This document shows positions 36,594 through 52,738 of a DNA stretch of 64,000 nt, one piece after another. Origin of the DNA: a virus. The notes under the pieces were generated by a model that saw only the letters and a program-made list of their open reading frames with translations, searched no databases and was not told the DNA's origin. Every line of letters begins with the position of its first letter. The first letter of the stretch is position 1. The stretch lies in the IMG/VR virus record IMGVR_UViG_3300033149_003004, positions 18,656 to 82,655 of that record. One strand, given 5' to 3'. The translations under genes were made by a program, and so were the position numbers.

Positions 36594-36621
36594 TCCTCAG
36601 GCGCACGGAAGCGCCTGAGGA
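36594..36621 (+). promoter_or_regulatory. CsrA-type CANGGANG hairpin
   Basis: TCCTCAGGCGC-ACGGAA-GCGCCTGAGGA, 11-bp stem. Confidence 0.65.
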
Positions 36622-36650
36622 TCCTAACACTTACCACAGGAGACTGAGAG

Positions 36651-37013
36651 ATGAAGCCGAAAAGAACAGCACGAGTCGAGGTGAGAAGCAAGCACAGCCG
36701 AGGTGTTGGTCCTCGGAGATTTGGCGGGCCCGACACCTACGTGGCGGTCCAGGTGGTGCCGGAGAGGGTTGAGCCTCTCCGTCGCCTCGACCGCAAGGCG
36801 GCTGCCCGTCGTGGGATCGAACTTATCTACGTGGGTGAGGGATACGCGAAGCACTTTGGCCCCCGCAGCACGTTGGGGGAGGCAATCCGCAAGGCCACGG
36901 AGATTGTGGATCGGATCAACGCGGAAGAGGGAACTGGAGAGACTAAGTCAGTCCACTGGGGCATCCAGTCCGCGAAGCTGTGGAGATTGCGGTTCGGACT
37001 AGCGAAGAGGTAG
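36651..37013 (+). CDS. Early small protein, paralogue B
   Basis: FGGPDTYVAVQVVPE..RRGIELIYVGEGY shared with paralogue A. Confidence 0.75.
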   Translation: MKPKRTARVEVRSKHSRGVGPRRFGGPDTYVAVQVVPERVEPLRRLDRKAAARRGIELIYVGEGYAKHFGPRSTLGEAIRKATEIVDRINAEEGTGETKSVHWGIQSAKLWRLRFGLAKR

Positions 37014-37033
37014 AGGCCGAATCATTCGTTGCT

Positions 37034-37061
37034 TCCTCAGGTGCACGGAAGCGCCTGAGGA
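37034..37061 (+). promoter_or_regulatory. CsrA-type CANGGANG hairpin (second copy)
   Basis: TCCTCAGGTGC-ACGGAA-GCGCCTGAGGA; the C>T change keeps a G-U pair. Confidence 0.65.
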
Positions 37062-37090
37062 GCATAGCACTTACTACAGGAGACTGAGAA

Positions 37091-37513
37091 ATGAATCAGC
37101 ACACAACTCAAGACGAACAGGCAAACGTCGTTAGCAAGCTAATTGACGACGCCGCGGAAATCGCTGCCTCAGCGTGGGGTCCAATCGTAGCAGCTATCGC
37201 GAGATCCACTGCCGCTTCGGTGGAGCAGGCGCAGCAAGCCGCTCGATCCGCCAGTGAGGCGGTCGATGGAGCTGAGGACGTACACGCATTGGCTACTTCG
37301 ACCGCGACGGTCGCAGAAGTGGCTGTCGCAGCGTGGGAATCGGCCATGCTGGCTGCCGCGGCGTCCACTGCCGCTTCCAAGGCCGCTGAAGCGGCGCTAG
37401 AAGCAGCGAGAGCGGCACAGGAGGCCGCTGACCTGGCCAAAGCCGCTGATTTGGCCAAAGCCGCTGACTTGGCCGAAGCCATTGATAGCATAACACTTAC
37501 TACAGGAGACTGA
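37091..37513 (+). CDS. Ala-rich protein
   Basis: Repeat-leader RBS; AADLAK repeats; stop lies inside the next leader. Confidence 0.6.
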   Translation: MNQHTTQDEQANVVSKLIDDAAEIAASAWGPIVAAIARSTAASVEQAQQAARSASEAVDGAEDVHALATSTATVAEVAVAAWESAMLAAAASTAASKAAEAALEAARAAQEAADLAKAADLAKAADLAEAIDSITLTTGD

Positions 37514-37595
37514 GAGATGGAGACGAACCAGCAGAACGATTTGGGCGTTGGCGACGACTTGGAGATTTTTGTGGTCAAGCAAAGGAGACTCGACA

Positions 37596-50925: not shown

Positions 50926-50929
50926 CAAC

Positions 50930-51160
50930 ATGAATGATGCTTTAATTCGTCGCTGGGAGCATTGTAAGAGTGATTTTCTGGAATTGTCGAAGAAGGAGTT
51001 CGACGATATGGTGAAAGCTGGAAAGTTTGCGGAAGGCCCTATTAAAACGGGGCTTTCTGCGTTCATGCGGGAGTTTGGTCCCTACTCGCCAGAGCGATGG
51101 GCTTTTGGAAAGCTCTGCGATGGGCGGTTGGTTTGCGCTAAGATTCAACCTTTGCATTAG
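50930..51160 (+). CDS. Hypothetical protein
   Basis: AGGTG RBS, operon packing. Confidence 0.5.
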   Translation: MNDALIRRWEHCKSDFLELSKKEFDDMVKAGKFAEGPIKTGLSAFMREFGPYSPERWAFGKLCDGRLVCAKIQPLH

Positions 51161-51171
51161 GAGAACGTAAC

Positions 51172-51996
51172 ATGTTGGTGAAGCAGGCGGATGCTGTGGC
51201 AATTTGCCAAGACTATGGTTTTGCCACCGCTGATGGTTGGACGGTAGCGAGGCTTAGCAAAAAGCTCTCTGAGCTAGTGCAATTGTACCGCAACGGGGAG
51301 TTTGAGCCGAGCGGCGATCTGTCTCTGTTATTGAAGCGGATTGCCGAGCTTGAGTCCGGTGGGGAGTCCATCGAGATCGGAGACGACTCAGCTGGTGACG
51401 AAACCATATCCGATGTTGGGAGTGACGATTCGGAGACGGAAGCGTGTCTCCTCAGTGTCGGTGACCGAGTGATTGTCCACGATTCTGAGGAGGATTGGAA
51501 AGGGATCGTGGGCGAGATAATCCGAAGTGATCGGGTGATGGTCCGTGATCGTCGGGGAGAGACTTGGGAAGTGGCTGTGGAGAAATGCGAAATTGTCAAG
51601 CACGCTGCCGACATAGATCGGGAGAAGAAGGGGATGAAGAAGCCCAGCTTTGCCAGGCAGAAACAGCAGCCGAAGGCAAGGACGCCAGAGGATGAGGAGA
51701 TTCGTGAATTGGAAGAGCGTTTGCGAGTGTTACGATTCAAGCGTGCTGGCTATAAAAAGACTGGCCGGTCCAAGCTGAAGCGGGATGAGCTGGCGGTGAA
51801 GGTTTTGCAAGCCCATCCGGAGGGAGACACACTGGAGCAATTAGCCGAAGAGCTTGACTTGCGATGGCAAAGGCAAGGCAGGCAATCGAATCCTCGAATG
51901 TCAGTCTCCTGCCTGAAGCGTATTGTGAAAGCTGGGATTTTGTTCGGTCTGTTGCGAATGGAGGGAGGGAAAGTGCTATGGCTCAGTTCCGAGTGA
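51172..51996 (+). CDS. Hypothetical protein with SH3/KOW-like and C-terminal wHTH-like segments
   Basis: LSVGDRVIV..; AGGAG RBS. Confidence 0.6.
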   Translation: MLVKQADAVAICQDYGFATADGWTVARLSKKLSELVQLYRNGEFEPSGDLSLLLKRIAELESGGESIEIGDDSAGDETISDVGSDDSETEACLLSVGDRVIVHDSEEDWKGIVGEIIRSDRVMVRDRRGETWEVAVEKCEIVKHAADIDREKKGMKKPSFARQKQQPKARTPEDEEIRELEERLRVLRFKRAGYKKTGRSKLKRDELAVKVLQAHPEGDTLEQLAEELDLRWQRQGRQSNPRMSVSCLKRIVKAGILFGLLRMEGGKVLWLSSE

Positions 51997-52388
51997 CAGT
52001 CCGTTTCAGATTTGAAGCTGCCCATCGACTCTATGGATATAATGGCCCCTGTGGGCGAATTCATGGACATACTTACGCAGTGGAGGTTACGTTGCGTGGG
52101 GAAACGCTTGATTGGCGAGGAATGCTGATAGACTTTGGGGAATTGAAGCGCGTGGTTTGCCCGCTGATGGATAAGTGGGATCATCGATTGCTTCTTCATA
52201 AAGAGGATAGCTTAACTGGCTTGTTGAATCCTTATTCGTATTGCCTTTTTCCAATGAATCCTACGGCCGAGGTCATGGCTCGGATGGTTTGGGAGGAGGT
52301 AAAGCGAAAACTACCGACTGGAGTTCATGTAGATAACGTGCGAGTCTATGAGACTCCTGATTGCTGGGTGGATTATTATGAAAAGTAA
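51978..52388 (+). CDS. queD: 6-carboxytetrahydropterin synthase
   Basis: FEAAHRL..Y.GPC.RIHGHTY, IDFG, WDH, NPTAE, VYETP. Confidence 0.93.
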   Translation: MAQFRVTVRFRFEAAHRLYGYNGPCGRIHGHTYAVEVTLRGETLDWRGMLIDFGELKRVVCPLMDKWDHRLLLHKEDSLTGLLNPYSYCLFPMNPTAEVMARMVWEEVKRKLPTGVHVDNVRVYETPDCWVDYYEK

Positions 52389-52561
52389 GCGGTGCCTGAA
52401 CTTGGCACAAATGCCGTCGGGAAGGATGTGTGCCGATTCGTAGGTTAGAGAAACTATGACGAATCGCTTATTGTCTTATGCTGATTGGTTGAAAGGCGGT
52501 AGTGATAGGATAAAGACGTTCGAGTTTCACTTTGCCCGCATGCGGGAGAAGGAGTTAGGAA

Positions 52562-52738
52562 ATGCTAGTCTTGACTAGAAGAAAGGATGAATCGATCGTC
52601 ATTGGTGATGACATAGTTGTGACTATCGTTGAGATTCGCGGAGACAAAGTACGATTGGGCATCAAGGCCCCGAAGGAAGTGCCTGTCCATCGGAGAGAGA
52701 TCCATGATGCTATCAGACAGAAGGAAAGAGGTGAATAG
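52562..52738 (+). CDS. csrA: Carbon storage regulator (58 aa; below the ORF-track cutoff)
   Basis: Manual translation [58 protein letters not shown]; AAGGAG RBS. Confidence 0.95.

Follow-up and report, generated by a model that had tools for sequence, protein, structure and literature searches.

A tail-less CsrA encoded beside the sliding clamp of a probable planctomycete phage, and two GGA-loop hairpins in its early leaders that may be CsrA operators

Introduction

High-affinity CsrA sites present a GGA in a hexaloop, and in the glgC leader such a hairpin site is combined with a second site over the Shine-Dalgarno (SD) sequence, the CsrA dimer bridging sites that lie 10-63 nucleotides (nt) apart (PMC7652899). 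Here we analyze a stretch of 64,000 nt (the window, to which all coordinates refer unless another sequence is named) from the viral record IMGVR_UViG_3300033149_003004, which carries a csrA gene of its own and, in the leaders of its small early genes, two hairpins that may be CsrA operators of the glgC type. The record comprises 82,655 base pairs (bp), has direct terminal repeats and is rated complete; the window covers its bases 18656-82655. The part under study, from the first hairpin to the end of csrA (36594-52738), spans the early region through the replication module.

Phage-encoded RsmA/CsrA homologues, their similarity to host proteins and their correlation with CsrA-bearing hosts have been published (Campa et al. 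2021, PMC8450108; Sobrero and Valverde 2020, PMC7366521), and the reports on mobile CsrA propose control of host physiology or of CRISPR-Cas (PMC8450108, PMC7366521, PMC9928087). Furthermore, Vibrio and Acinetobacter phages in GenBank have annotated csrA genes. In the literature we found no paper describing CsrA sites on the leaders or mRNAs of a phage itself.

Results

An intact csrA gene lies directly upstream of the sliding clamp

The initial annotation had recognized a csrA gene in the replication module, and this gene was upheld by a Pfam search and by alignment to solved CsrA structures. The gene and its neighbor are:

52562-52738, + strand: csrA, 58 amino acids (aa), a CsrA core without the C-terminal tail of the host type (Pfam match, structure alignment)
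52742-53785, + strand: sliding-clamp gene (DNA polymerase), matching phrog_947 at 1.2e-17

The csrA open reading frame (ORF) matches the Pfam CsrA family (PF02599) at 6.7e-26, with 90.5 bits against a cut-off of 27 and coverage of profile positions 1-52 of 53 (89.2 bits in the whole-genome search). Its product aligns without gaps over residues 1-54 to solved E. coli, Pseudomonas and Yersinia CsrA/RsmE chains and, compared with 1y00, 7yr6 and 2jpp, keeps L2, L4, R6, R7, V40, V42, R44 and I47, so that the RNA-binding positions of strands beta1 and beta5 are retained in the alignment. R44, the loss of which abolishes RNA binding by CsrA (PMC7652899), is present in all five aligned phage copies. 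Judged by sequence, this is a genuine, intact CsrA gene, and its product is predicted to bind GGA-containing RNA.

The clamp gene follows csrA after 3 nt. The csrA leader (52540-52561) holds three GGA within its last 20 nt, the last one directly before the AUG, and resembles the arrangement common in planctomycete csrA leaders, AAGGAA followed by GGA at the AUG. This triple GGA may mark autoregulation.

Two GGA-loop hairpins occupy early-gene leaders

The early region is an array of small cassettes with the following features:

35953-35980, + strand: early promoter, sigma-70-like (TTGACC, 16-nt spacer, TATAAT), heading the cassette array
36004-37527, + strand: five copies of one leader/ribosome-binding site (RBS) of about 30 nt (CAYAACACYTACYACAGGAGACTGAGAGATG), starting at 36004, 36264, 36622, 37062 and 37488 (repeat families D3 and D4)
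36033-36230, + strand: small early ORF e1
36293-36589, + strand: small early ORF e2
36594-36621, + strand: hairpin 1, 11-bp stem, hexaloop ACGGAA with C-G closing pair, starting 4 nt past the stop codon of e2 and lying 29 nt ahead of the e3 start
36636-36643, + strand: e3 Shine-Dalgarno ACAGGAGA, GGA at 36639-36641, in a weak 3-bp mini-hairpin in the fold
36651-37013, + strand: small early ORF e3
37033-37062, + strand: hairpin 2, 11 bp plus an outer wobble pair, one internal G-U, loop ACGGAA, between e3 and e4
37076-37083, + strand: e4 Shine-Dalgarno ACAGGAGA, GGA at 37079-37081
37091-37513, + strand: small early ORF e4
37517-37615, + strand: 32-aa ORF
47199-47232, + strand: intrinsic terminator of canonical form, with a 13-bp stem and then a U tract

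A pattern search of the window returned exactly two such hairpins, at 36595-36620 and 37035-37060 on the + strand (0 expected). Folding gave -25.6 and -28.8 kcal/mol (z -2.8 and -3.2), and the minimum-energy fold of each displays the ACGGAA loop. Pattern search and folding thus agree with the initial annotation on two hairpins with 11-bp stems and C-ACGGAA-G loops, and its spacing can be read directly from the sequence: the loop GGA (36607, 37047) precedes the SD GGA (36639, 37079) by 32 nt in both leaders. The stem substitution that it had described as preserving pairing does so as a G-U wobble, and is not a compensatory double change; the C>T change, in copy 2, keeps the pair in the + strand RNA only.

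All copies of the leader/RBS end in ACAGGAGACTGAGAGATG, and each precedes a small early ORF. The hairpin stands in front of leader copies 3 and 4; copies 1 and 2 have in its place a purine-rich stretch, itself a partial copy of the promoter-proximal leader, and copy 5, which overlaps the end of e4, lacks the hairpin as well. The genes e2 and e3 are paralogues (79% identical), and alignment together with repeat families D2 and D5 indicated one tandem duplication of a unit consisting of leader, gene and hairpin. Between the copies the hairpin is identical at 27 of 28 positions and is the best-conserved stretch of the diverged cassettes: the 34-nt block that contains it shows a single change, compared with about 65% identity in the upstream coding flank and about 88% in the leader. 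For a cassette that has diverged by 14-21%, a binomial estimate of the probability of one change or none in 28 nt is about 0.01-0.08, which is mild sequence evidence for constraint, or for gene conversion. We rejected the reading of the hairpins as intrinsic terminators, given that their tails, TCCTAACACT and GCATAGCACT, have no U tract; a terminator scan lists neither of them, although it lists the real terminator at 47199 with its U tract. No PHROG match was found for e1-e4 or for the next gene (37596-38042), no Pfam match for e2-e4, and a search of IMG/VR for relatives of the e1-e3 protein family returned none.

The hairpins as possible glgC-type CsrA operators

We put the probability that the two hairpins are glgC-type CsrA operators on the e3 and e4 leaders, with host CsrA acting first and phage CsrA reinforcing it, at roughly 40%. 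The GGA sits in an ANGGAN loop, and the second GGA, over the SD sequence at 32 nt, falls within the range of 10-63 nt. The near-identity of the hairpin in its two copies speaks for this reading too, as do, from the results given below, the excess of ANGGAN hexaloops on long stems, the closely similar CsrA of the host clade, the hairpins in planctomycete csrA leaders and the retention of csrA in relatives. A CsrA dimer would dock on the hairpin loop and bridge to the SD GGA 32 nt downstream, as it does on E. coli glgC, and this bridging would lower the translation of e3 and e4. Host CsrA would act first because it is already present when the early mRNAs appear, and would tie the output of e3 and e4 to the level of free CsrA in the cell. 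Phage CsrA, made later together with the replication genes, would add to the dose and deepen the repression. It would also act on host mRNAs bearing GGA, an activity that probably explains why all of the relatives retain csrA.

The probable host clade has a closely similar CsrA and FliW

The cellular CsrA proteins closest to that of the phage belong to Planctomycetota and are 67-78% identical to it; the groups represented are Pirellulaceae, Planctomycetaceae, Gemmatales and Thermoguttaceae, together with a few candidate-phyla bins. In two viral relatives, G003 and G004, the 52-aa core of CsrA is 94% identical to that of Pirellulales. Because the closest cellular proteins are all from Planctomycetota and the G003 and G004 copies come this near to Pirellulales, the host is, from these comparisons, very probably a planctomycete with a CsrA of its own, and the lineage that donated csrA is Planctomycetota, most like Pirellulales. 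The CsrA of the host clade is nearly identical, and a matching protein would therefore be present from the start of infection. To our knowledge, almost no phage biology has been described for Planctomycetota.

We also examined Csr-related loci in genomes of the host type. FliW was present in all five of them, with flagellin about 1 kilobase (kb) away in the four in which flagellin was found, and we found no FliW in the phage. A simple pattern search detected no csrA-like ORF between fliW and flagellin in these genomes. Of four flagellin loci fetched, two leaders were readable in the right orientation, and neither contained a clear GGA-loop hairpin. The csrA leaders of planctomycetes were more informative on site layout: among 70 of them we found 27 hairpins with stems of at least 5 bp located 25-55 nt before the start, seven of which carry GGA in the loop, on stems of up to 10 bp. 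Their SD region is typically AAGGAA, and another GGA comes after it, at the start codon. If csrA is autoregulated in these bacteria as in E. coli, which is an assumption, a long-stem GGA hairpin combined with an SD GGA would be the native layout of this clade.

csrA is linked to the clamp gene in a broad phage group, and viral copies lack the tail

Relatives of the phage were found via its clamp protein and a 490-aa ATPase. csrA is present in all four viral relatives examined, directly 5' of the clamp gene in G003, G004 and G005 and elsewhere in G001. A scan of IMG/VR with the phage CsrA protein returned 50 viral loci, in 12 of which a clamp homologue starts between a few bases and about 400 nt after csrA (two of the 12 are the same loci as those of G003 and G004). 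Identity of the clamps among these 12 ranges from 66% down to 32%. Since csrA is kept in the relatives and adjoins clamp genes diverged this far, we conclude that it has long been a fixed component of the replication module in a broad group of phages. In the relative G023, a csrA-clamp phage record of 84.8 kb, short repeats of the unit GCGGATCTRCGTGGA form a dense array near one end (L192:754-1781).

Viral copies related to planctomycete CsrA systematically lack the C-terminal tail of the host proteins. The median length is 62 aa for 49 viral copies (L140-L189) and 73 aa for 72 planctomycete copies (L012-L091), and 36 of the 49 viral copies, compared with three of the 72 cellular ones, measure 64 aa or less (Mann-Whitney P-value = 5e-12, a value inflated by the relatedness of contigs). 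FliW binds the extended C-terminal tail of CsrA in other bacteria, and the 58-aa phage protein has no such extended C-terminus. Because the viral copies lack the tail and FliW is present in the host-type genomes, it is a reasonable idea, drawn from these sequences, that tail-less viral CsrA would escape control by FliW.

Statistical and comparative evidence that weighs against the operator reading

Several results count against a role of the hairpins as CsrA operators. One count is in its favor: across the whole genome, ANGGAN hexaloops on stems of at least 10 bp were seen twice against 0.02 expected from 200 dinucleotide shuffles, and on stems of at least 5 bp eight times against 4.8 expected; most of this excess reflects the existence of any long stem. 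On its own, the motif CANGGANG shows no enrichment in the window (50 occurrences against 42 +/- 7 expected), and GGA occurs in the loops of strong hairpins genome-wide at chance frequency. The two hairpins amount to one independent event because a single tandem duplication produced both, they are found at only two of the five copies of the shared leader, and the SD GGA is generic, being common to all early genes of the phage and its relatives. The stem is also unusual for a CsrA site: most ligands from SELEX have stems of at most 4 bp, and CsrA binding may be disfavored by very stable stems (PMC7652899), whereas those of the phage measure 11-12 bp at -25 to -29 kcal/mol. This length is not decisive, because csrA leaders of the host clade show stems of 7-10 bp with GGA loops.

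The comparative searches point in the same direction. An exact scan of IMG/VR for the hairpin returned 0 hits. When 272 kb of relatives were searched with a covariance model of the hairpin and leader, only the shared RBS was recovered, and in 47 further viral records, picked because they carry csrA, the model gave only two weak hits, the better of which has the same layout with the loop AAGCAA. The region 35950-38190 has no homologues in the relatives and is hypervariable, synteny beginning at 38194 and continuing onward; G003, for example, differs in its early genes and carries a repeated intergenic cassette of its own, with a hairpin whose loop is CCTCATCTA. The hairpin is likewise absent from short metagenome contigs of the same phage group, and leaders of orthologous genes across the relatives show no conserved second GGA. 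The expectation of the initial annotation that csrA and the hairpin would occur together fails here, csrA being present in the four relatives and the 47 records and the hairpin in none; nor did we find its loop conserved in homologous leaders, the region being hypervariable and such leaders nonexistent. Because csrA is kept without the hairpin and the early region has no homologues, the conserved role of csrA cannot be control of the hairpin. In addition, two features described below, an early gene that is sigma-like and promoters of a separate class, point more obviously to transcriptional timing.

These results bear most heavily on the narrower claim of the initial annotation, an early-to-late switch driven by phage CsrA that shuts off the early cassettes. 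The intact CsrA and the glgC-type layout on which it was built both stand, and the comparative test, the stem length and the restriction to two of five leaders speak against it; we consider such a switch unlikely.

Other pattern searches yielded candidates that we set aside. An exact scan of IMG/VR for the leader pattern gave three hits (L002-L004), which are unrelated and AT-rich or due to chance, and the pattern GCACGGAAGC-gap-ACAGGAGA matched 19 times, in every case on a stem of 2-5 bp, a number within chance expectation. GGA-loop hairpins with stems of at least 6 bp before an SD sequence exceeded all 30 shuffles per genome in three of ten related genomes; this excess is uninformative because real sequence has more hairpins of every kind, and of the hits in relatives the two strongest fall within coding sequence.

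Two structures in other sequences were recorded alongside. In a related metagenome contig (L113:174-204), a double SD sequence (AGGAGACAGGAGAC) is preceded at 34 nt by a GC-rich hairpin with a stem of 10 bp and a loop of 11 nt that includes GGGAGA; its layout is similar to that of the window hairpins and its sequence is unrelated. In G001 (L010:8731-8772, minus strand) two perfect palindromes of 19 bp, each with a CAGGATG core, lie in tandem at a spacing of 23 bp. As RNA they would resemble hairpins of the CsrB type, a reading that we rejected in favor of lambda-like origin iterons, as they follow a replication-initiator-like gene and adjoin an AT-rich stretch.

Alternative explanations for the hairpins

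The best-surviving alternative is that the hairpin is an intercistronic element at the 3' end of the duplicated e2/e3 cassette that matters by its structure, with an incidental loop, and that csrA acts only on host mRNAs. Such an element would be a barrier to 3'-5' exonucleases, a processing site or a cistron insulator, and would set the relative amounts of the small early proteins. It fits the duplication unit of leader, gene and hairpin, in which the hairpin travels with the upstream gene, as well as the start of hairpin 1 only 4 nt past the e2 stop codon. The very stable stem is like that of stabilizer hairpins and unlike that of typical CsrA sites; moreover, the early regions of relatives have other strong intergenic hairpins with unrelated loops (for instance CCTCATCTA in L092), GGA loops occur at chance frequency and csrA is conserved without the hairpin. 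What this explanation leaves to coincidence is the loop: from base composition, only about 0.5% or less of arbitrary hexaloops would have the sequence ANGGAN and be closed by C-G, and given a few dozen strong hairpins in the genome we estimate the chance of one such hit at a few percent. It would likewise have to accommodate a loop that is identical in both copies despite 14-21% divergence of the cassettes, and a preserved distance of 32 nt to the SD sequence. We regard a purely structural role as tentative, and as nearly as likely as the operator reading.

A different factor might instead recognize the hairpin, such as an antiterminator of the lambda N/boxB type, another early phage protein, or a dimeric DNA-binding protein on the 28-bp palindrome. 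Two copies in one early operon downstream of a strong promoter recall nut-type sites, the palindrome is near-perfect and the phage has many small early proteins without assigned function. However, the C>T change breaks the palindrome in DNA and keeps the pairing in RNA, we recognized no boxA-like partner or N-like protein, and there is no nearby terminator to override, the first being that at 47199. Known boxB stems are short and carry pentaloops, which also counts against a boxB-like site. Recognition by such a factor is improbable.

That the hairpin and SD sites of abundant early leaders are a decoy, soaking up host CsrA early as a sponge and not as a target, would suit the strong promoter and the two potential sites per leader, but is very improbable, as there are only two hairpins, one per leader, where known sponges of the CsrB/RsmZ type carry many sites, the window has no match to any Rfam family, and the phage adds CsrA rather than removing it, contrary to titration.

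Further features of the region

The credible genes, from simple ORF calls, are almost all on the + strand, and GC skew is positive throughout. The early promoter at 35953-35980 agrees with the consensus at 11 of 12 positions, is the best site within 34.5-53.5 kb and is preceded by about 400 nt of poorly coding sequence; the terminator at 47199-47232 is the only strong one on the + strand downstream of it within the scanned stretch. The replication module contains genes for helicases, a primase, a replication-initiator-like protein, a DnaB-like helicase, a QueD-like protein, CsrA and the sliding clamp, and further holds a UDG-PolA exonuclease domain fusion and PolA itself.

The sigma-like gene of the early operon (41818-42339, + strand) is a weak match to phrog_351 (2.6e-5). 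Promoters of a distinct kind, with CTAGGWG and, 17-18 nt further on, TATAAT, are located at 8377, at 46987 and, on the minus strand, at 6482, and the sigma-like protein may read those at 8377 and 46987. The element at 46987-47242 (+ strand) consists of such a promoter (CTAGGTG, 18-nt spacer, TATAAT) followed by about 215 nt of apparently non-coding, strongly folded RNA (-90.4 kcal/mol, z -4.2) ending in the strongest terminator of the region. It may be a small RNA of the phage or the leader of the replication module; it matches no Rfam family, and in the structured RNA at 47022-47242 the GGAs are paired.

A 165-nt non-coding repeat (46768-46934 and 49195-49360, 84-95% identical) flanks the replication-initiator-like genes, and two tandem 49-nt repeats with internal dyad symmetry (49436-49533) lie just 5' of the DnaB-like helicase gene; these repeats may constitute an origin or control region. 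Within the gene for a 496-aa DUF6745 protein, about 32 tandem 12-nt units encode tetrapeptide repeats (45215-45756, + strand). The QueD-like gene (51864-52388, + strand; phrog_2389, 1.8e-32) is located just upstream of csrA, and the relative G003 has extra genes at that position (L096:19-435). Given the QueD-like gene, the DNA of the phage may carry a 7-deazaguanine modification.

Discussion

The locus offers a concrete test case, consisting of two short viral RNAs that each have an ideal site, of a protein of 58 aa and of its nearly identical counterpart in the host. If binding and repression are true, a viral CsrA would for the first time have a demonstrated target among viral mRNAs, and the phage could couple its early gene output to the host's level of free CsrA. 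Independently of the hairpins, the linkage of csrA to clamp genes that are only 32-66% identical and the loss of the tail in viral copies suggest a selected role in taking over the FliW-type Csr circuits of Planctomycetota. If the tail-less protein does escape, phage CsrA could not be switched off by FliW.

Among described systems, the E. coli glgC leader is closest in layout, with a hairpin-loop GGA upstream of an SD GGA and a spacing range that includes the 32 nt seen here (PMC7652899). It differs in that the stem here has 11-12 bp instead of a few pairs, the mRNA is viral and the sites are predicted; furthermore, the CsrA antagonist of the probable planctomycete host is FliW and not a small RNA. 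In the RsmE-hcnA complex (PDB 2jpp; SELEX consensus RUACARGGAUGU), the site has the form A(N)GGA(N) closed by C-G, which ACGGAA with its C-G pair fits, and phage CsrA aligns to the RsmE chain over residues 1-52. The hcnA hairpin, however, contains the SD sequence, whereas the phage hairpin lies upstream of it and is much more stable. The plasmid protein RsmQ (PMC9928087) is likewise a close copy of host CsrA carried by a mobile element; unlike the published phage and plasmid cases, the present one concerns a host clade in Planctomycetota and a csrA that is locked to the clamp gene.

The FliW-CsrA-flagellin switch of Bacillus subtilis has a counterpart in the host-type genomes, where FliW is present and flagellin adjacent. 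The phage departs from it in having no FliW and in a CsrA that, at 58 aa compared with a median of 73 aa for cellular copies, is without the extended C-terminus.

For timing, the closest parallel is RegA of phage T4, a phage translational repressor that binds the initiation regions of several early mRNAs in a later shut-off and thus matches the early shut-off put forward in the initial annotation. RegA has no relation to CsrA in either sequence or fold, nor is it a regulator captured from a host, and the temporal switch in the phage described here is a proposal only. The fullest version of that proposal, in which a tail-less, FliW-proof CsrA, fixed next to the clamp gene in a whole group of planctomycete phages, would join host CsrA in repressing the early cassettes through glgC-type operators as a RegA-like shut-off, is quite unlikely; if true, it would be an early shut-off built from a captured global regulator of the host, with a self-regulatory loop.

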